From sequence record KC295538: a DNA stretch of 64,000 nt; one strand, given 5' to 3'. A model generated the notes under the pieces. The model was given only the letters and a program-made list of their open reading frames with translations. It was not told where the DNA came from and did not search any database. Every line of letters begins with the position of its first letter. The first letter of the stretch is position 1. Origin of the DNA: Escherichia phage PBECO4. Below are positions 5,765-57,705 of this stretch, in pieces. A program made the position numbers and the translations under genes.

Positions 5765-5825
5765 AAAATTCTCCTTGAGAACAATGTATCATACAAAAAA
5801 ACCAGAGTCAACCCCTGGTACAAAT

Positions 5826-9037: not shown

Positions 9038-9108
9038 ATCTTCTCCTATCCTCTATTAAAAGCGATTATAACACATCTGAATGCTACTGTAAAGACATAA
9101 ACACAAAA

Positions 9109-9124
9109 AGACCCATAAGGGTCT
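9109..9124. terminator. bidirectional intrinsic terminator
   Basis: agacccataagggtct hairpin flanked by A-run and T-run. Confidence 0.55.
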
Positions 9125-19143: not shown

Positions 19144-19635
19144 TTAACCCCTGTTAATACCGTTATCTACAGTTTTCTTTACGTATTTGTAATCGAAATA
19201 GAAGTTCCCAGAACCAATACTTTTAAAGTACCACATAATTATAATAACATCAAGCACTTCATTATCGTATACAGTACTTTGTTGGAAGTAATACTCTTCA
19301 CTATCCCACGGACCTTCCAGTACTTCACTCGGAATTATAATGTCATCGGAATCGCTATCAGTACTGTAGATGGTATCTGTATCATTAATATAGACCATGT
19401 ACTCATTATGCATATTAATGAAGCATTCATAATCATTAGGGTCGGTATCCAGTACACACGTTTCTGTATCCAGTACGCACGTTTCTGTATCTGAGTCGTC
19501 ATTATTAAGGAGGTTATCCGGTACATAATATTGAGTACTTGTGTCTTTGAAAACACCGTAAACTGAACCTTCTTTTGCCATATTCATGTACTCATGAATC
19601 TTCTTTGCTTTTTCCAATGAACTCTGTAATGTCAT
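19144..19635 (-). CDS. FamA paralog, MSLQSALEKAK subfamily copy 5
   Basis: 163 aa; WDSEEYYFQQSTVYD. Confidence 0.75.
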   Translation of the reverse strand: MTLQSSLEKAKKIHEYMNMAKEGSVYGVFKDTSTQYYVPDNLLNNDDSDTETCVLDTETCVLDTDPNDYECFINMHNEYMVYINDTDTIYSTDSDSDDIIIPSEVLEGPWDSEEYYFQQSTVYDNEVLDVIIIMWYFKSIGSGNFYFDYKYVKKTVDNGINRG

Positions 19636-19644
19636 TTTATAATC

Positions 19645-19998
19645 TCATATATTGAAATAATAATTATTCGTTCTTGATGGGGATGGATTAAATACGTTTT
19701 CTTTTTCAAATCTCTTCATTTCATTTTGCAAAGAAACCATTTCTTCAAATGTACAGGAGTACTTATTCTTATCAAACACTAATGCAGCCTGAAATAGTTC
19801 ACCATCGTCCAGTACTGTATAATCTATAAGACTCTCAGATTCATAGTCATCATGTGATACATGAATAAATTTAAAACAAGAATCTTTGTAATGCATATAT
19901 AAACTCAACTCATGTTCCGAGTCTCCCTTAATAAGATTACAGCACAAGTCCCATCCTTTAGGTAACTTATAATAGTACATAGAATAATCATATGTCAT
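19645..19998 (-). CDS. FamA paralog, LFQxALVFDKKY subfamily
   Basis: 117 aa; DGELFQAALVFDKNKYSCTFEEM. Confidence 0.7.
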   Translation of the reverse strand: MTYDYSMYYYKLPKGWDLCCNLIKGDSEHELSLYMHYKDSCFKFIHVSHDDYESESLIDYTVLDDGELFQAALVFDKNKYSCTFEEMVSLQNEMKRFEKENVFNPSPSRTNNYYFNI

Positions 19999-20354
19999 TC
20001 TTGAATTCCTAAATTGAATTTGTATTCTTGATTAATACTTGCATTGGGTTTATTCAAAGCAGCATACTCTTTCATTTCATTTTGTATTGCAATAACTTCT
20101 TCAAATGTACACAAGTACTTCTTATCAAATACTAATGATTCTTGGAATAGTTCTGCGGTATCCATTAATGTATAGTCAGGCATATCTTGGTGTGGATACT
20201 GTAATGAACTGTAATCAATGAATGTAAATTTACCCTGAGTGTAATGAATATACTCATTTGCACTGTGCATTAAATCACCTTTGTTTAAATTACAAAAGTA
20301 CTGATAACTGTGCTTAAAAGAATGTACTGATATTAAAAAATCAAATTCCATCAC
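19995..20354 (-). CDS. FamA paralog, LFQxALVFDKKY subfamily
   Basis: 119 aa; TAELFQESLVFDKKYLCTFEEV. Confidence 0.7.
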   Translation of the reverse strand: MMEFDFLISVHSFKHSYQYFCNLNKGDLMHSANEYIHYTQGKFTFIDYSSLQYPHQDMPDYTLMDTAELFQESLVFDKKYLCTFEEVIAIQNEMKEYAALNKPNASINQEYKFNLGIQE

Positions 20355-20728
20355 TCTTCCCCTAGATTGAAATGATTACAAAAATTATCTTCACCAGTAC
20401 TGCACCAGATATCTATACATTCCCTGTGAATACATTTAATTCTACGCTGTAATTCAATCATCTCTTCTAATGTACAGATGTACTTCTTATCAAATACTAA
20501 TGCCTCCTGAAACAGTGCAGCATCATCAAGTACTGTATAGTCCAACATCTCGGTTGCTTTACCCCTAAACCCAGTACTAAAATCCATCAAATAAAAGTCA
20601 GCATTCCAGTACTTTAAAATCTTGTCCCTAGCGTAGTTTAAATCACCCTTGTATAAGTTAGAGTGCGTAACTAACTCACCAGTGTACATCCATGTCCTTG
20701 CACAAAATTCATTATATTTTATTTCCAT
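20351..20728 (-). CDS. FamA paralog, LFQxALVFDKKY subfamily
   Basis: Start moved to ATG at 20728 (MEIKYNEF...); DAALFQEALVFDKKYICTLEEM. Confidence 0.7.
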   Translation of the reverse strand: MEIKYNEFCARTWMYTGELVTHSNLYKGDLNYARDKILKYWNADFYLMDFSTGFRGKATEMLDYTVLDDAALFQEALVFDKKYICTLEEMIELQRRIKCIHRECIDIWCSTGEDNFCNHFNLGEE

Positions 20729-20778
20729 CTTAATCTCTACTATAATTAATAAGGTAAACTCCAATATAAGGAGCACGT

Positions 20779-20909
20779 TGCGGGGCGGGGTATTTTTTTG
20801 TTTCAGGAAACATGCCCTGTACTCTGAAAAACACAATATAAAACTTTATATTAAACATATACCTTAACATGTTTTTCAGCGGAAATTTTTTTGACCCCCC
20901 CCTGCGGCC
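20779..20909. other. GC-rich structured intergenic element (G-tract ... C-tract)
   Basis: gcggggcgggg + T-run at 20780-20800 and gacccccccctgcggcc at 20893-20909 can pair across ~100 nt; unusual in AT-rich context. Confidence 0.4.
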
Positions 20910-20927
20910 TGTCAAAATGAAACGTCT

Positions 20928-21137
20928 CTATTTATTCAGCCTAGAAAGCTTGATTTCTTCAATCCTTTTCATTGCACAAAGCCTTCGACTCGTCATCTCG
21001 TATAAATTCAATACTCGGTTTACCGTATTATCTACACTCTGAACCAAATATGTATCCTTCAAAATCAAATCCATCATGTATTCAAAACCCTTAATACTAT
21101 GCGAACTTATCACTTCCGGCTCTTCAAACGTAATCAT
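20928..21137 (-). CDS. hypothetical protein
   Basis: 69 aa ORF. Confidence 0.5.
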   Translation of the reverse strand: MITFEEPEVISSHSIKGFEYMMDLILKDTYLVQSVDNTVNRVLNLYEMTSRRLCAMKRIEEIKLSRLNK

Positions 21138-21327
21138 AATTCCAATCCCCTATTCCCTCTAACCTTCTAAGATATCTTGCGTAAATTATTTCGAAATATC
21201 TGTGCAACGAAATTACGGATTGCTCATAATCATCATTCCTGTACATTGTGCATGTAAGAAAATCATTTAAACCGTAATCTAAACTGCACTTGAACTTCTC
21301 CTTTGCAACATCTCTAAAATTATTCAT
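21124..21327 (-). CDS. hypothetical protein
   Basis: 67 aa ORF. Confidence 0.5.
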   Translation of the reverse strand: MNNFRDVAKEKFKCSLDYGLNDFLTCTMYRNDDYEQSVISLHRYFEIIYARYLRRLEGIGDWNYDYV

Positions 21328-21487
21328 AATATGTCCTCTGTACAGCGTAGGTGTACTGTGAACTCAGCACCACTAATAGGTAATCTATATTGTAAGCACG
21401 ATTTCCTCGTTGACTAGCACGACTGGAATAAAGAATATTATCCACATATGCATTGAACTGATCTTCAAATAACTCTTTCATCAGCAT
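21324..21487 (-). CDS. small hypothetical protein (54 aa)
   Basis: ATG ORF MLMKELFEDQFNAY...; ATGA stop/start overlap with downstream gene. Confidence 0.35.
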
Positions 21488-21509
21488 TATACCATCACAT
21501 AATCATACA

Positions 21510-22061
21510 TCATACATTAACAACTTTATCGATGTAATCTTCTAACATATCAATATATCTGGTATTGGTTCTAACTAAAAGGTATGCAAATCCAGAAAAC
21601 TCCTGTGTATAATGCTTTACAGCGTACATACAACGAAGCTTATCATTGTCATACATTGTACTGTACTGAAACAAACTCTCGTCTGATAGCTCTAATAACG
21701 CTTGGGCTTCACTTCTCGTGAACTTCATAGGGTCATGTACTGCATCACAAAAACAAACCTGTGTCTCGCTATTGAAACCCTGTGATAGATATATACCTTC
21801 ACACTCTGAACGCACCGATACTGCATTATAACTATGTGTTGCCCCCATCATATCTGAACTCAAAACTAAAATCAACCCATTTTTATTTTTAATCAACAAA
21901 TCTGACTTAAGGGATTTGATCTCCGTATGGGAAATATCACCAAATCTTCCTGGGACTTCAAACTTATCAACGTTGTATACAATCTTTTGTACTTGCTCTT
22001 TTAAACGCTTAATTGCACTTCTGTCTTTTTCTAATGTATCTAATAAACTCATTGAACTCAT
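21510..22061 (-). CDS. FamA paralog
   Basis: Start moved to ATG at 22061 (MSSMSLL...); DESLFQYSTMYD. Confidence 0.65.
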   Translation of the reverse strand: MSSMSLLDTLEKDRSAIKRLKEQVQKIVYNVDKFEVPGRFGDISHTEIKSLKSDLLIKNKNGLILVLSSDMMGATHSYNAVSVRSECEGIYLSQGFNSETQVCFCDAVHDPMKFTRSEAQALLELSDESLFQYSTMYDNDKLRCMYAVKHYTQEFSGFAYLLVRTNTRYIDMLEDYIDKVVNV

Positions 22062-22071
22062 TGTACTTTCC

Positions 22072-22416
22072 TTACATATTTGTACCGAACAAAACGGAAC
22101 TTTGAATGCCATTAATCGACACTTCATGTACATATATATTTTGTCTGAACAAAGGAACTAATTGAACTAAACTCGTTTGCATAATAATATGCATATGTAC
22201 ATTGTCATATGCCGTTTCGTATTGGAATCGTGCAGCTTCATCTTCTATGAAATTCGGAACTTGGACTGGATTCTCAAAATTTGTCCTTGTACTGAACTGT
22301 ACATCATTGTCCTGTACCTTAATACCATATGAATTATCATTGTTATCAACTACATCAAATTCAATTAAACTACCATCTTTACTGACGTTTACTATATAAA
22401 CCGAAAATCGACTCAT
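22072..22416 (-). CDS. FamA-like paralog (divergent)
   Basis: 114 aa; EAARFQYETAYD. Confidence 0.5.
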   Translation of the reverse strand: MSRFSVYIVNVSKDGSLIEFDVVDNNDNSYGIKVQDNDVQFSTRTNFENPVQVPNFIEDEAARFQYETAYDNVHMHIIMQTSLVQLVPLFRQNIYVHEVSINGIQSSVLFGTNM

Positions 22417-22928
22417 AAACCTATTTCCTCTAAATCTTTGACAAATGTATCATAATCCGATAATGACAAAAATATGTCTGTACTGATGTTCTGACGTAAT
22501 GTATTAAACAAATTATGTACCTGTAATAAATCAGGTGAATAAATCAGGGATTGCTGGAAATACGATTCTTCTGTATCTAATATATCCCTGCACTCAATTT
22601 CACGAACTCGTTGGTATATTGAATTTAATAATACATTTTCATCTTTGAGCATTGGAAGGTATCGGATGTACATGTTCTCCATCAACTCATCTTGGATTGA
22701 ACCCCTGAACTGCAACACGTATTCAAAACACATCACTACATCTTGTAGGTAATTGGCACTGTACTGATTACTATACACGATTTTATGACAACTGAACTCG
22801 GAATCATTTCTGAACCAATTGTTACCCTCTTTCCTGTACTTATGACTAAGCTTCCCATCCTCCAACGCTCGAATGAACTTCATAATGTTAATTGCAAAAT
22901 CATATGAATGATGCTTGTGTTGATGCAT
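22413..22928 (-). CDS. FamA paralog
   Basis: 171 aa; EESYFQQSLIY. Confidence 0.7.
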   Translation of the reverse strand: MHQHKHHSYDFAINIMKFIRALEDGKLSHKYRKEGNNWFRNDSEFSCHKIVYSNQYSANYLQDVVMCFEYVLQFRGSIQDELMENMYIRYLPMLKDENVLLNSIYQRVREIECRDILDTEESYFQQSLIYSPDLLQVHNLFNTLRQNISTDIFLSLSDYDTFVKDLEEIGL

Positions 22929-24818: not shown

Positions 24819-24870
24819 GATAACAGCTTTGGTCTTCTATGTCAATACCAAAACGAAAAAAGCCCATATC

Positions 24871-36896: not shown

Positions 36897-37298
36897 TTAC
36901 AGTCCTAAGATAGTGCGTGCTTCGTTACGTTCCGTACACAGCTGCATGATGTGAGCAAGTAAGTCCTTGCTAATGTATCCGTTGTCCATAGCTTCACGGA
37001 TAGATACATCATAAGCACCGAACCCCGTGCGAACGATACGCACATCATTCAGGTTAGTATTATAGATACCGCCGAGATCAACGGCTTCGAATACTACATC
37101 AACAGAATATTCATTGTTGCCATCGTGGAAGTTTTCCAGTGCAATAGTATTGGATACCGCCCAACGTTTGCAGTTTCCAATGATGCGGCACTGTTCCGGT
37201 TGGATAGTGCCATTACTTACAGCGTACTCCAGTGCATCTTTACCGAAAGTCCGAGCCAGTACTAAAACGTCAGCGAAGGAATTGATTGAGAAGGTCAT
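36897..37298 (-). CDS. hypothetical protein
   Basis: Start moved to ATG at 37298 downstream of leader hairpin and AGGAG SD. Confidence 0.6.
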   Translation of the reverse strand: MTFSINSFADVLVLARTFGKDALEYAVSNGTIQPEQCRIIGNCKRWAVSNTIALENFHDGNNEYSVDVVFEAVDLGGIYNTNLNDVRIVRTGFGAYDVSIREAMDNGYISKDLLAHIMQLCTERNEARTILGL

Positions 37299-37720: not shown

Positions 37721-37870
37721 TTTGAATCTCCTAACTTTGTGGGCCGTCGCACCATTGCCGCCCTACGAGATACATTATTGCAGTACTGATATACTTTGTC
37801 AATACTTTTTTATTAATAGTTTTAGTTCCACCAGCAGATAGTTACTCACCGTTATTAACTATATATTTTG

Positions 37871-37953
37871 GATACACTTATGCACCCTGTGGGCTGATTT
37901 GTTTCTATGCGTATATAATAGCAAAGGGACTGACCGGAGTCAATCCCTTTTTT
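37871..37953 (+). repeat. terminator-bearing repeat, copy 1 (candidate small RNA cassette)
   Basis: gatacact..gcaccctgtgggc..tatataatagcaaa + gggactgaccggagtcaatccc hairpin + T6. Confidence 0.5.
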
Positions 37954-37964
37954 ATTCTTTTTTG

Positions 37965-40017: not shown

Positions 40018-40078
40018 AGGGAGAACCGTTTCCCCCTCTCGATATAAAACATTATACTTGATTCTAAGTACAATGCAA
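40018..40078 (-). promoter_or_regulatory. PeSL-like promoter + leader hairpin
   Basis: TTGCAT-N16-TATAAT then gagggggaaacggttctccc. Confidence 0.6.
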
Positions 40079-40120
40079 GTACTTTTTTAAAATAGTTTTC
40101 AGTACTGAATACTTATATAA

Positions 40121-40210
40121 TAGATACACTTCCGCACCCTATGGGTCAGTGAGTTATCTCTCAATGAATATATAATAGCAAAGGGACTGACCGGAGTCAA
40201 TCCCTTTTTT
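40121..40210 (+). repeat. terminator-bearing repeat, copy 2 (candidate small RNA cassette)
   Basis: TATAAT-agatacacttccgcaccctatgggtc...aaagggactgaccggagtcaatccc + T6. Confidence 0.5.
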
Positions 40211-40218
40211 AATCTTTT

Positions 40219-43258: not shown

Positions 43259-43343
43259 TTACTCCTGGTTATGTCGTTATTAAACATTATACGGGGTTAT
43301 AGATAGTTTTCAAGTATATTTCAGTACTAGCCACCAGCATATA

Positions 43344-43430
43344 ATAGATACATTTATGCACCCTATGGGCTGATTTTTTTCTATGCGTATATAATAGCAA
43401 AGGGACTGACCGGAGTCAATCCCTTTTTTA
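43344..43430 (+). repeat. terminator-bearing repeat, copy 3 (candidate small RNA cassette)
   Basis: TATAAT-agatacatttatgcaccctatgggctg...gggactgaccggagtcaatccc + T6. Confidence 0.5.
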
Positions 43431-43437
43431 ATTCTTT

Positions 43438-46827: not shown

Positions 46828-46847
46828 GATTCGTTTCCTTATTACTA

Positions 46848-46906
46848 GGGGAAACCGTTTCCCCTTTCGATGTAAAACATTATACGCTTATTGAGATAGT
46901 TTGCAA
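46848..46906 (-). promoter_or_regulatory. PeSL-like promoter + leader hairpin
   Basis: TTGCAA-N16-TATAAT then ggggaaacggtttcccc. Confidence 0.6.
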
Positions 46907-46960
46907 GTACTTTTTATCAAATACTTTAAAATAGTTTTCAGTACTCAAACATTATACAAT

Positions 46961-47050
46961 AGATACACTCCTGCACCCTGTGGGCTAGTGAGCTATCTCT
47001 CAATGATTATATAATAACAAAATGGCTGACCGAAGTCAACCACTTTTTTC
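46961..47050 (+). repeat. terminator-bearing repeat, copy 4 (variant)
   Basis: TACAAT-agatacactcctgcaccctgtgggct...tggctgaccgaagtcaacca + T6. Confidence 0.45.
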
Positions 47051-47052
47051 AT

Positions 47053-53597: not shown

Positions 53598-53652
53598 TTT
53601 GTAACCCTCATTCAGTAGTTGATGTAAGTATTATACGCTTTTAAAAACATTT

Positions 53653-53760
53653 GTCAAACTATTTTATCAGGGGAGTTTTTCGTGTGCCTTACTCCTGGGC
53701 TACTTAACGGGAAGTTACTTATTTCGTTCCCCGTCCTGATGTAAAACATTATACGCCTTT
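53653..53760 (-). promoter_or_regulatory. long conserved 5'-leader element (copy 3) with tandem promoters
   Basis: near-identical to 42962-43060; second TTGACA..TATAAT promoter closer to the ATG. Confidence 0.5.
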
Positions 53761-53818
53761 AAACATAGTTTGCAAGTACTTTTTAAAAATAGTTTTCAGT
53801 ACTGAATATTAAAAAAGT

Positions 53819-53847
53819 ATTGACAGCATTATCAAGTACTGGCATAA
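53819..53847 (+). promoter_or_regulatory. plus-strand sigma70-like promoter
   Basis: TTGACA-N17-CATAAT; convergent with a minus-strand TTGACT..CATAAT promoter ~100 bp away. Confidence 0.5.
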
Positions 53848-54022
53848 TATACCACATGACAACAGCTAACCCACCGGGTGCACAATTGTAACTATACTAA
53901 ACTAATTTTTCTATAGATACACTCCCGCACCCTATGGGCTACGGCTTATCTGCCAATGAATACATTATGCCAGTACTGACAAAATAAGTCAATACCGGCA
54001 ATTGTAAAGATTTGTAAACTAC

Positions 54023-56069: not shown

Positions 56070-56097
56070 TTGACTTGATCCTGAAAAAGCGTATAAT
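56070..56097 (+). promoter_or_regulatory. plus-strand sigma70-like promoter
   Basis: TTGACT-N16-TATAAT in ORF-free region. Confidence 0.5.
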
Positions 56098-56284
56098 TAC
56101 TACATAGACGCGAGAAAGCGGAAACCCCAGAGGGTGCGGAATTACGCCCAAAATTCAAGATATAAAAAAAGGATACACTCCCGCACCCTAGCAGGTAAAC
56201 GCACTTTCTCAGTACTGAATTATAGTACCATAGTCCGGCCCAGGATGGCAAGCAAATTAATTAAAACTTTTTTCATCCAGGGTA

Positions 56285-57077: not shown

Positions 57078-57705
57078 TAGCTTTCTTTCATTATTCAGTA
57101 CTGATATTCTTGAGAACTACCCGACTACAAACATCATTATATCCCACAAATCATAAACGTCCCAACGTAAATTTCAACTTTCGAAGATCCAACTTTTATT
57201 TCATAGGTACTCCAAAATTTTTAGGATCGAGATTTAGGATGGAGTACTAACCAACTTTTTGCTGGAGCCTCAAGGGGTAATGGAATTTTACCCCGAAGGG
57301 TAAAGGGGTAATTGAAATTAAGGTGAAAGTAATAATTCAGTACTAATCATTGCGTGATTACTTTTGATTACATTTGATGTAATTTGAAAAATGGAAAAGG
57401 AGCTTGGAAACTACAAAGTACGGCAGACTTCCTCTGCCTACTTAGTGGCATATCAGTACTGAATCCTTCCCGTGCATTCTTGAGCATTCTTGTCTATACT
57501 AATCAGTACTGAATCATATATAATCATTCTGTGATTCTACGGTGCTCATATAAATGTTTATATATGATTACTTATGACTACCTATGATTACGGGGTTTAG
57601 CCTGGGGAGAATCCTAGTGATCGCATTTGTCCAGGCTGAATTTTAACAATTCGCCTGTACATAAAGGTTGTTCACTAGGAGCTTCCCCTGTCTACTTGTG
57701 TTTAA

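Follow-up and report, generated by a model that had tools for sequence, protein, structure and literature searches.

A conserved single-copy intergenic cassette with two GC-rich blocks as a candidate regulatory site upstream of a paralog array in an Asteriusvirus jumbo phage

Results

We analyzed a stretch of 64,000 nt from Escherichia phage PBECO4 (sequence record KC295538), here called the window, which is 93–99% identical to SD-6_S16, G17 and 121Q and thus belongs to an Asteriusvirus jumbo phage of the 121Q/PBECO4 group. It is an E. coli/Salmonella phage with a genome of about 350 kb. The locus is a non-coding gap of 199 nt (20729–20927), surrounded by tightly packed genes that all lie on the − strand, and directly upstream of a tandem array of three phrog_15629 paralogs. 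The original prediction placed it between genes of one family (FamA). This is correct for the downstream neighbor (20351–20728, − strand), which is a member of phrog_15629, but not for the upstream 69-aa ORF (20928–21137), which matched no PHROG or Pfam family.

The TAG stop codon of the 69-aa ORF (20928–20930, − strand) forms the upstream border of the gap and is adjoined by a TTGACA hexamer (20911–20916, − strand), whose third base is G, T or C across alleles. As the hexamer is missing from the versions of the gap in A4, EJP2 and Hallingskeid, we place it outside the conserved cassette described below. At the other end, a weak Shine-Dalgarno region, TAGAGATTAAG, together with the ATG (20728–20726) of the first paralog, occupies 20726–20745 on the − strand. 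UE-S1 keeps the N-terminus KY[NK]EFC..TWMY at the protein level although its DNA has diverged, which supports this ATG as the start codon. The same protein conservation, which covers the first 13 codons, marks a TAGAGA-17-TATAAT stretch within the gene start as coding, and we rejected it as a promoter. Further into the gap lies a small leader hairpin, CUCC-N7-GGAG (20759–20773, − strand), which is conserved across alleles; it has no compensatory support, and single changes in WPEC3 and 121Q weaken its pairing. The center of the gap is an AT-rich core (20800–20883) with 31% G+C and 89–96% identity among alleles.

On the + strand, the left side of the element reads gcGGGGCGGGG (20780–20790), TA and T7 (20793–20799), and the right side reads T7 (20886–20892), GA, C8 (20895–20902) and TGCGGCC. 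We refer to the right side as GC block 1 (20893–20910; GA-C8-TGCGGCC on the + strand, GGCCGCA-G8-TC on the gene strand) and to the G-tract as GC block 2 (20780–20790; GCGGGGCGGGG on the + strand, CCCCGCCCCGC on the gene strand, where it follows AATAC). The sequence is thus as originally described, a G-tract with T7 and a C-tract about 100 nt downstream, the exact distance being 104 nt. The enclosed stretch (20791–20894) has a G+C content of 26%, against 32% in the surrounding 36 kb. The G-run, GGGGCGGGG (20782–20790), and the C8 run are the sole such runs in the 64 kb, in agreement with the claim that they form the only long G/C homopolymer pair of the window. Runs of at least seven G or C occur at this locus only, GGGGSGGGG is found once (0.05 expected), and a scan for eight of nine G or C returned one G site (20782) and one C site (20894/5). 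As no G-rich and C-rich sites fell within 200 nt of each other in any of 200 first-order Markov simulations, the two runs are real and non-random.

It had been proposed that the runs can pair around an AT-rich loop, and thermodynamically this holds for the window allele, with duplex energies of −27 kcal/mol on the + strand and −21 kcal/mol on the − strand. We considered that the gap is a structured RNA in a long leftward (− strand) polycistronic transcript, in which the G/C blocks would act as a clamp and hold the AT-rich segment as one large stem-loop. Such a structure might serve as an RNase III-type processing site, stabilize the transcript or insulate the paralog array from the genes upstream. 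Pairing potential is present in 15/15 distinct window-clade tract alleles tested (−12.7 to −21.8 kcal/mol on the − strand, −14 to −27 on the +), and the inner GGGGU/ACCCC pairs are nearly invariant. In addition, the segment 20770–20915 of the window allele folds better than its shuffles, with z = −3.27 on the + strand (0/200 shuffles as good) and z = −1.95 on the −. Turkey5 has an alternative long-range pair of its own (7 bp, CAGGCCG/CGGCCUG) at equivalent places.

The comparison of alleles does not bear this structure out. RNAalifold found no compensatory pairs (covariation term −0.08), and the MFE structure of the window scored on 18 alleles gave no double changes, a count whose power is limited by the modest divergence, with a covariation score of 0.026 against a shuffle mean of 0.027. 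In the outer helix 9/17 pairs vary, in every case by breaking, and one-sided changes weaken the inner helices. Duplexes of cognate G-side and C-side sequences have no advantage over swapped pairs (permutation p = 0.87 on the + strand, 0.94 on the −); the two runs are the most variable parts of the gap, and no co-evolution between them was seen. The favorable z on the + strand, too, is lost in most other alleles: it is near 0 in G17, 121Q, Ecwhy1, EcMJ and fEgEco12 (values of −1.0, −0.5, −0.4, 0.0 and −0.1 among the five) and stays low in only two of the seven others, UB (−2.2) and CMSTMSU (−2.65). The Turkey5 stem is broken by an uncompensated change in JNE01, in EJP2 the two GC blocks have their G-rich sides on the same strand, which precludes pairing, neither tract is present in ph0011, and the element as a whole is absent from UE-S1. 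A search of the whole window against Rfam gave no match at the gathering score and, even at E ≤ 10, nothing above noise of 10–17 bits, and a tRNA/tmRNA search returned none. A conserved long-range RNA stem between the runs is thus not supported, every comparative test that we ran having come out against it, and the structured RNA of the original prediction is in our opinion unlikely. The best reading of the pairing is that of a by-product in the window clade, not a conserved feature.

A terminator had also been suggested, and none was found in the gap on either strand in a scan of 19500–22500. On the + strand, the G-tract with T7 is no terminator because the adjacent 5′ arm is missing, and on the gene strand the runs precede A7 or AACGUG and no U-run. 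This bears on a further idea, namely that the locus specifies a small RNA or antisense transcript from the + strand, either with the G-tract and T7 as terminator or with the whole hairpin as its body. The + strand gives the best fold (since several of the pairs are G-U), the order of GC block and T-run recalls the 3′ half of a terminator, the corresponding block of Turkey5 forms a terminator-like hairpin (opposite strand), and there is a TATAAT at 20741–20746 (+). However, T7 has no hairpin partner beside it, the z of the + strand is not conserved, and the local genes are all on the − strand. The TATAAT, moreover, is TGTAAT in six alleles and TTTAAT in CRJP21, with loss of a key A or T, and the other candidate, TTGACC-16-CAAAAT (+), lacks the final T in four alleles and in Turkey5. 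We regard such a transcript as very improbable.

What is conserved in the gap is a DNA motif of 21 nt, GGGGTCAAAAAAATTTCCGCT, which runs from 20898 to 20878 on the gene strand (general form GGGGTCAAAAAAWTTTYCGCT; pattern GGGGTC-A6/7-T3/4-YCGCT) and contains an A-tract/T-tract junction. It occurs once in the window, with none expected even when up to three mismatches are allowed, and is common to the window clade, A4, Turkey5/JNE01, EJP2 and the Erwinia jumbo phage Hallingskeid. The C-run is the 5′ G-run of this motif in expanded form, while the G-run corresponds to a variable GC block further downstream. The motif precedes phrog_15629 genes in constant orientation, on the gene strand, in four diverged Asteriusvirus allele groups, and in Hallingskeid it is present between unrelated flanking proteins. 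A search of bacterial genomes with the motif pattern gave three matches in 596 Gb, which is chance level, and a search of IMG/VR gave one, a chance match within a gene.

Conservation is at least as high in the gap as in the flanking genes (89–96% in the core against 70–99%). TH47 and the window share 94% identity in the gap against 85–86% in the genes, and for BF17 the values are 94% in the core and 70.5% in the upstream gene. A phrog_15629 gene invariably comes directly after the Asteriusvirus cassette, whatever the upstream neighbor (window, A4, Turkey5, EJP2): in A4 the downstream gene is a 42% paralog and the upstream gene is a different one, and in EJP2 the cassette precedes the first of four paralogs. 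As it is absent from UE-S1, the cassette is dispensable. For the allele set, IMG/VR contributed 121Q only and one metagenome scan three 121Q-like copies, and when the gaps of Turkey5, EJP2 and Hallingskeid were used as BLAST queries, JNE01 and Hallingskeid were the only new versions.

The two GC blocks are far less constant. The run in GC block 1 has lengths of C4 to C10, and near-identical genomes disagree in it (C7 in 121Q and C6 in the metagenome contigs OEQX01000020/OERM01000014; C8 in SP27 and C6 in UB). Conservation within the gap is lowest in GC block 2, which has a mean agreement with the window of 0.83 and counts CGGCGGCGGGG, CGGTGGCGGGG, CGCGGCGGGG, TGCGGCGGGG and GGGGCGGGG among its variants, and the adjoining T-run (20793–20799) is hypervariable, from T5 to T9. 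The T7 within the motif (20886–20892), in contrast, is the same in 16/17 window-clade alleles compared. As one T7 is constant and the other variable, the mutational input is evidently present, and we take the motif to be held by selection.

Such variation could suggest a contingency switch, in which slippage would alter the geometry of a promoter (TTGACA - G(n) - TCAAAAAAAT, gene strand) or the strength of the clamp, so that sibling phages express the paralog array at different levels. The perfect TTGACA is 17 nt upstream of the A-run in the window, and in C6 alleles it is 17 nt from AAAAAT, so that TTGACA-N17/19-AAAAAA(T) spans the G-run. On the other hand, the −10 candidate is merely AAAAAT or AAAAAA, the −35 drifts within the clade and is lost outside it as described above, some of the length differences may be homopolymer sequencing or assembly errors, and there is no evidence of heterogeneity within populations. 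A sigma-70 promoter with the G-run as spacer seems unlikely, its −35 being unconserved outside the clade and its −10 weak, and a phase-variable switch appears improbable to us.

The single, constantly placed copy bears on two other explanations. One is a mobile or invertible segment, such as a MITE-like insert or an invertible promoter switch, with the GC runs as imperfect terminal inverted repeats. The arms match at 10/12 positions after reverse-complementing one of them (GCGGGGCGGGGT vs. GCAGGGGGGGGT), and the element is present in some phages and absent from others. Nevertheless, further copies are absent from nearly every record, no target-site duplication is found at the edges, the orientation is identical in 21/21 window-clade copies, and the arms are the least conserved part. 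Nor are the ph0011 and Turkey5 versions empty sites; as the whole gap aligns, they are diverged orthologues, with both tracts and the motif missing in ph0011. We consider this explanation scarcely credible.

The other is a DNA-level element, namely a (redundant) replication origin or another unique protein-loading site, in which the 21-nt motif would serve as binding site, the core of 26% G+C would unwind and the GC blocks would limit the melting. Nearly all records contain the element once per genome, WPEC3 alone showing a second short match, the motif is kept across genera whatever the flanking genes, and the GC blocks do border an AT-rich core. Furthermore, three independent rearrangements have breakpoints at or near the tracts: a deletion in SD-1_S14 begins directly after T7, the homology of A4 stops at the C-run, and the replacement in ph0011 runs from tract to tract. 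However, the element is not essential, as UE-S1 lacks it and ph0011 lacks tracts and motif, it has no iterons or repeated boxes, and its orientation and position relative to the phrog_15629 gene are constant. As gene regulation fits this constancy better than an origin does, we think a DNA-level element of this kind rather improbable.

Candidate promoter elements were sought on the gene strand. A candidate extended −10, TGT-TAAGGT (20861–20869, − strand), varies only in the "n" of TGn (T or C), and TAAGGT is present in the EJP2 version as well (ATAAGGTATAAT). A second candidate −10, TATATT (20835–20840, − strand), lacks a good −35; the homologous position has TAAAAT in alleles of the Ecwhy1/fEgEco12 type and TGt-TAGAAT in Turkey5/JNE01, so that T−12, A−11 and T−7 are kept. 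From the motif to a TATAAT in EJP2 and to a TAAGAT in Hallingskeid the distance is exactly 21 nt each, and in Hallingskeid a GC hairpin follows 11 nt past the TAAGAT. The same layout (−10, about 10 nt, GC hairpin, Shine-Dalgarno) recurs in dozens of early promoters in the terminal-repeat region of the window. No sigma-70 consensus (≥9/12) was found on the gene strand within the gap of the window, Turkey5, EJP2 or Hallingskeid; the single gene-strand match in EJP2 is at the end of the upstream ORF, outside the gap. The −35 hexamers are poor in all of these versions, and the distance from motif to −10 is not constant, being 11 or 37 nt for the window candidates and 35 nt in Turkey5, as opposed to the 21 nt above.

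Several other identities were rejected. For the related jumbo phage CBB, a Rak2-like promoter class has been described with TGAAAC(G), a 17-nt spacer and tgNTATAAT (PMC5259590 Table S6); the gene strand of the gap has TGAAAAAC and TGAAAC, with no TATAAT-like hexamer 17 nt on. Look-alikes of the T4-type late promoter (TATAAATA) and of sigma-28 and sigma-32 promoters were, in a check by eye, partial and wrongly spaced. A small protein is also rejected: an ATG at 20870 opens 46 codons that are cut to 10 in eight alleles and interrupted by other stops elsewhere, and the database annotations of small ORFs within the gap disagree in every record. A host origin is not supported, with no match in 5,426 E. 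coli genomes, and a repeated element does not agree with the single copy or with a search of the window, where no shared 10-mers were found clustered elsewhere. Finally, the terminal repeat of fEgEco12 measures 20,993 bp (PMC13070987), its copy of the element is at 37,022–37,218, and the terminus corresponds to about 57.3–57.5 kb of the window. The element is thus about 16 kb from the boundary of the ~21-kb direct terminal repeat, and hence is not a packaging or terminus signal. The Sharanji record begins approximately 490 nt from the element, its start being an arbitrary assembly cut within a small gene.

Discussion

The position, conservation and variability of the gap, its motif and the absence of covariation between its runs are established by the comparison of alleles. 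Among the possibilities originally named, a protein-binding or regulatory site is the one that we favor. Specifically, we suggest that the gap is a single-copy cis-regulatory promoter/leader cassette with slippage-prone GC blocks, a tentative reading to which we give a probability of roughly 0.4, its function being deduced from sequence. The cassette would combine a promoter-upstream site and a leader for the leftward (− strand) phrog_15629 tandem array. From 5′ to 3′ it would consist of the motif, an AT-rich stretch with TAnnnT hexamers, a GC-rich block and a leader of about 50 nt with the ribosome-binding site. The selected core would be the 21-nt DNA motif with its A-tract/T-tract junction, placed where an UP element or an activator site would be, and RNA polymerase, as the host core with either sigma-70 or the RpoD-like sigma of the phage itself, would start within the AT-rich core, such that the second GC block is transcribed as part of the leader. 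The two runs would then be the two GC blocks of the cassette, expanded in this clade into slippage-prone homopolymers.

We infer both the promoter activity and the existence of a binding factor. It counts against a promoter that TAnnnT hexamers are frequent by chance in AT-rich DNA, and the array could alternatively be served by read-through from upstream promoters, e.g. 22208–22181; we found no promoter or transcript map for any Asteriusvirus in the literature. The persistence of the GC blocks in a genome of 33% G+C is described, not explained, by the cassette model.

The rrnB P1 promoter is a sigma-70 promoter that depends on an UP element. The cassette resembles promoters of the UP-element or activator type in that an A6-7/T3-4 tract is found about 40–50 bp upstream of a TAnnnT hexamer, and in the fixed 21-nt spacing of the EJP2 and Hallingskeid versions. 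For CBB, promoters of the RpoD-like type that carry an UP-like element have been reported (PMC5259590). As in the early promoters of the window itself, a GC hairpin and a ribosome-binding site follow in the cassette. Unlike UP-element promoters, the cassette has no recognizable −35, and its spacing is variable in the lineages of the window and Turkey5. UP elements, moreover, have no counterpart of the longer sequence-specific motif (GGGGTC...YCGCT) around the tract of the cassette, whose promoter activity is presumptive.

The PeSL cassettes of T4-type phages, reportedly described by Arbiol et al. in 2010, are said to combine an early promoter and a stem-loop between ORFan genes. PeSLs are many-copy repeats that drive homologous shuffling. 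The cassette is similarly short and non-coding, has promoter-like and GC stem-forming parts, lies in a hyperplastic region of small genes and can be found before different gene neighbors (A4). However, it is present in single copy per genome, and the many-copy promoter-hairpin units of the terminal repeat of the window seem to fit the PeSL description better than the gap element does.

Two further phage systems share features with the cassette. The T4 origins ori(uvsY) and ori(34) consist of a promoter followed by a DNA-unwinding element, and here, too, a promoter-like region is joined to an AT-rich stretch, in a non-essential element of a phage with T4-like replication genes. Unlike these origins, the cassette is tied to one gene family, which suggests gene control, and the likeness is one of composition alone. 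The RNase III processing stem-loops between the early genes of T7 are compact, irregular helices of roughly 20–30 bp. The cassette resembles them in its intergenic position within a presumed long early transcript and in a possible long-range stem, but this stem would be a short G:C clamp around a branched AT-rich segment of 104 nt, for which comparative support is lacking.

In Neisseria porA and opc and in Bordetella fim, poly-G or poly-C tracts between −35 and −10 constitute contingency loci. The cassette likewise has G/C runs of 4–10 whose length varies in close relatives beside promoter-like hexamers, but it lacks a convincing −10, its flanking −35 is not conserved, and it is found in a virulent coliphage. 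We have few grounds to expect that the paired homopolymers are a hypermutable tuning device by which slippage varies the expression of the paralog array among progeny; if they were, this would be a contingency locus as in bacterial pathogens, here in a lytic phage.

The comparative data gave no backing to a striking pair of G- and C-runs with a good fold z in one genome, and we regard the case as cautionary. Most genes of the ~350-kb Asteriusvirus/Rak2-like jumbo phages are functionally uncharacterized (83% of the genes of phAPEC6 have no known function), and the cassette offers a concrete handle on their regulation. We point out that a non-coding motif of 21 nt is kept across genera while the surrounding genes change, and that it is linked to a single expanding paralog family. 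Should it indeed be a promoter-upstream or operator site, the motif could lead to the factor that controls the phrog_15629 family and could help to annotate similar sites.

Results

The G run (GGGGCGGGG, 20782-20790 on the + strand, followed by TA and then T7) and the C run, contained in T7-GA-C8 at 20886-20902, read as the original prediction described them. G or C runs of at least 7 occur nowhere else in the window, GGGGSGGGG occurs once against 0.05 expected, and a scan of the 64 kb for 8 of 9 G or C found a single site of each kind, the two spaced 112 nt apart. A G-rich/C-rich pair within 200 nt arose in 0 of 200 Markov simulations, which together with the run scan bears out that this is the only long G/C homopolymer pair of the window. 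The runs enclose 104 nt of 26% G+C, and the pair is confirmed as real and beyond chance.

The surrounding 3 kb share 93-99% identity with Asteriusvirus jumbo phages infecting E. coli and Salmonella (SD-6_S16 99.2%, G17 97.4%, 121Q 93.2%), and all plausible genes nearby lie on the - strand, abutting or overlapping. The runs fall in a 199-nt non-coding gap between a 69-aa ORF, whose TAG stop (20928-20930) forms the upstream edge, and a 125-aa ORF with its ATG at 20728. The latter matches phrog_15629, a family of unknown function, as do a second and a third paralog on the same strand (19995-20354 and 19645-19998). The placement between paralogous genes thus holds on the downstream side, where the gap is the 5′ edge of the tandem array, but not upstream, as the 69-aa ORF had no match in family searches. 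At 20,351-20,354, G17/121Q-type genomes have ~530-590 bp extra (1358-1887 in L001, 1358-1947 in L002), comprising one additional ORF of paralog-like length (369-372 nt) and a further, short one (162-225 nt). Array copy number thus varies among isolates.

Folded as RNA, 20770-20915 gives -42.0 kcal/mol on the + strand (z = -3.27, 0/200 shuffles equally good) and -38.6 kcal/mol on the - strand (z = -1.95); folded as DNA, z is -1.2. The + strand folds better because several of its pairs are G-U, and the gene (-) strand has A-C mismatches in their place. Any MFE prediction will pair a G-rich with a C-rich block when both lie in AT-rich DNA. The gap sequences of 17 other Asteriusvirus genomes were gathered and aligned, and the two runs proved to be the least conserved portion of the gap: the G side reads GCGGGGCGGGG, GCGGGGGCGGGG, CGGCGGCGGGG, CGGTGGCGGGG, CGCGGCGGGG, TGCGGCGGGG or GGGGCGGGG, and the C run ranges from C4 to C10, with T interruptions in some alleles. 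The compensatory changes in related phages that a structured RNA had led us to look for are absent: RNAalifold returned 37 pairs with 0 compensatory changes (covariation term -0.08), and the window's own MFE structure, counted across the 18 sequences, showed 0 double changes and a covariation score of 0.026, where shuffles average 0.027; a clade divergence of just 5-10% gives this test low power, yet all changes seen are one-sided. In the outer helix 9/17 pairs vary, solely by breaking, and the inner AATATAAA/TTTATATT hairpin has two pairs broken in 8/18 sequences. When every G side was paired with every C side, cognate combinations were no better than swapped ones on the + strand (mean -18.8 vs -19.4 kcal/mol, permutation p = 0.87). 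The window allele folds, but most others do not keep its + strand z (CMSTMSU -2.65, UB -2.2, G17 -1.0, 121Q -0.5, Ecwhy1 -0.4, fEgEco12 -0.1, EcMJ 0.0). With no covariation, equally good pairing of swapped sides and z lost in most alleles, a conserved structured RNA is unsupported, and nothing indicates selection for the G/C helix in these sequences. An RNA clamp within a read-through - strand transcript could be read into the - strand fold; with cognate and swapped sides indistinguishable there too (permutation p = 0.94), we regard it as unlikely. A small RNA on the + strand, the better-folding one, is highly improbable. Rfam gave no hit at gathering score and 10-17-bit noise alone at E <= 10, and a tRNA scan found none.

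The suggestion of a terminator finds no support either, a terminator-like site being absent from the gap. A small ORF (ATG 20870, 46 codons) was rejected as non-coding, being truncated to 10 codons in eight alleles; GenBank annotation of this frame is inconsistent across several records. The element is present in one copy per genome, apart from a second short match in WPEC3, and no relatives were found in 5,426 E. coli genomes; that it is a mobile or invertible segment is scarcely credible. A boundary of the long terminal repeat was ruled out, as that repeat spans 20,993 bp in fEgEco12 (PMC13070987), whose copy of the element lies at 37.0-37.2 kb.

A different kind of conservation is seen in distant versions. 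Turkey5, JNE01 and EJP2, also Asteriusvirus, have phrog_15629 genes though no DNA match to the gap, and in each a non-coding gap directly precedes the first of these genes; that of Turkey5 aligns with the window gap over its full length. Common to all four gaps is a gene-strand sequence, GGGGTCAAAAAA(A/T)TTTCCGCT, with TTTTCGCT replacing TTTCCGCT in about half of the alleles close to that of PBECO4 (the window clade). This 21-nt motif is unique in the window (20898->20878; 0 expected at <=3 mismatches). BLAST with the EJP2 gap as query found it 21/21 in Erwinia phage Hallingskeid (366 kb), where it lies in a gap of 137 nt whose flanking proteins show no kinship to the Asteriusvirus ones and no PHROG match. 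Since bacterial genomes totalling 596 Gb yield three matches to the 20-mer motif pattern, close to the number expected by chance, and IMG/VR a single, in-gene one, the sharing of the motif among these jumbo phages is not due to chance.

On the gene strand, the C run corresponds to the motif's 5′ GGGG. Turkey5, JNE01, EJP2 and Hallingskeid have four G's at this position; in the window clade the tract is expanded to G4-G10. The G run is another GC block, which comes after AATAC in every version and differs among them in sequence and even strand bias. It is C-rich on the gene strand in the window; mixed in Turkey5, with a local terminator-like hairpin on the opposite strand; G-rich and (GGC)n-like in EJP2, so that the EJP2 blocks are unable to pair; and a self-complementary hairpin (CGCGGC-N8-GCCGCG) in Hallingskeid. 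Turkey5 has its own long-range pair, CAGGCCG/CGGCCTG, in which one change in JNE01 goes uncompensated. Conservation thus extends to the motif and to a high GC content at two positions, and not to a helix joining them.

Run lengths vary at several places in the gap: the T-run beside the G run from T5 to T9, the A5 run of the core from A4 to A6, and the C run even between near-identical genomes (121Q C7 vs C6 in two metagenome contigs; SP27 C8 vs UB C6). The T7 within the motif is invariant in 16/17 window-clade alleles. Slippage is thus active in the gap, with the motif alone shielded from it. Such variability could also serve a phase-variable switch, which we consider very unlikely.

Most genomes have the full element. 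SD-1_S14 has a natural ~240-bp deletion, equivalent to window 20,800-21,037, that begins directly after the T7 beside the G run and ends within the upstream ORF, so that neither the AT-rich core nor the C run remains and that ORF lacks its 3′ part; a ACTCTGAA repeat is found at its right edge (~21037) and 22 nt inside its left edge (window 20822). A4 retains the C run through the ribosome-binding site; its downstream gene is a 42%-identical paralog and its upstream gene a different one. In ph0011 the gap, 140 nt long, can be aligned over its whole length and contains neither run, and UE-S1 has the same two flanking genes with just 45 unrelated nt between them. The element is therefore dispensable; it accompanies the family of the downstream gene, and rearrangement breakpoints fall at its edges. 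Where present, the gap is conserved at least as well as its flanking genes: against TH47 both gap parts are 94% identical and the genes 85.7% and 84.6%, the comparison with BF17 gives 94% for the core and 70.5% for the upstream gene, and phages with the gap still at ~92% show as little as 76-77% identity in the downstream protein. A DNA-level site, e.g. a redundant origin, is in our view rather improbable.

Several other non-coding features of the window were observed. The region ~36,900-57,400 (G+C 0.37-0.41 vs 0.29-0.35) corresponds, by mapping to fEgEco12, to the ~21-kb direct terminal repeat. Its - strand has dozens of early-promoter units that differ little from one another, each with AAAAAGTACTTGCA-N17-TATAAT, ~10 nt, a GGGGA..TCCCC hairpin, SD and the ATG of a small gene. 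These many-copy units are far more like PeSL-type mobile regulatory cassettes than the gap element is. The palindrome AGTACT / CAGTACTG occurs in nearly every intergenic gap of 36,000-57,700, frequently twice per gap and also within promoter spacers. A ~100-nt unit, AAAAAAGGGATTGACTCCGGTCAGTCCCTTTGCTATTATATA ... AGCCCA(C/T)AGGGTGC(A/G)..., recurs at 37,721-37,964, 40,053-40,218, 43,259-43,437, 46,828-47,052 and 53,598-54,022, with its -35 TTGAC inside a hairpin (GGGATTGACTCCGGTCAGTCCC); the conserved GC-rich segment after that hairpin might be a small RNA. The physical left genome end (the fEgEco12 repeat start, with experimentally confirmed termini) maps to ~57,300-57,500, where gene orientation and GC skew also flip; the assembly from which the window was taken is therefore a circularised one that spans the junction. 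Near this terminus, a 52-nt non-coding stretch at 56,090-56,141 (gene strand ...GGGCGTAATTCCGCACCCTCTGGGGTTTCCGCTTTCTCGCG...) has 94-96% identity in other genera, namely in Salmonella phages 7t3, SE_PL, Munch and PHA46 and Erwinia phage Kaldavass, mostly in unannotated DNA, and is a second cross-genus conserved non-coding element. A compact overlap of terminator and promoter occurs at 5,765-5,825, where the next promoter (-35 TTGACT, -10 TACATT) has its -35 within the loop of a terminator-like hairpin, ACCAG-GGGTTGACT-CTGGT, that is followed by T7.

Discussion

Among the options originally offered for the runs, a protein-binding or regulatory site is the one that survives, as judged from sequence comparison. 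In EJP2 a TATAAT, and in Hallingskeid a TAAGAT, lies exactly 21 nt after the motif, the latter followed 11 nt on by a GC hairpin and ribosome-binding site, a layout like that of the window's terminal-repeat promoter units. At this spacing the A/T tract of the motif would span roughly -48 to -39, where an UP element or an activator site would be expected. The window clade offers two - strand candidates: TGT-TAAGGT (20869-20861), in which only the n of TGn varies, and TATATT (20840-20835), aligned with TAAAAT in a sister clade and TGt-TAGAAT in Turkey5/JNE01. Terminator-plus-sigma-70 units also stand in window gaps outside the terminal repeat, e.g. at 9038-9124 and 24819-24870. From the EJP2 and Hallingskeid spacing and the window-clade candidates we suggest, with a probability of roughly 0.4, that the gap could be a promoter-upstream site and leader for the phrog_15629 array. 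Against this, TAnnnT hexamers are common by chance, the motif-to-hexamer spacing is inconstant across lineages and an acceptable -35 was found in none of the versions examined; transcript data for Asteriusvirus phages were not found in the literature. The probability left over by the promoter-upstream reading and its five rivals falls to none of these.

In conclusion, the element would be a cis-regulatory intergenic cassette of an ordinary kind, though previously undescribed, for which SD-1_S14 represents a ready-made deletion mutant. Its interest is modest and lies in two points, the 21-nt motif shared across genera and the hypervariable homopolymers at the edges of the cassette.
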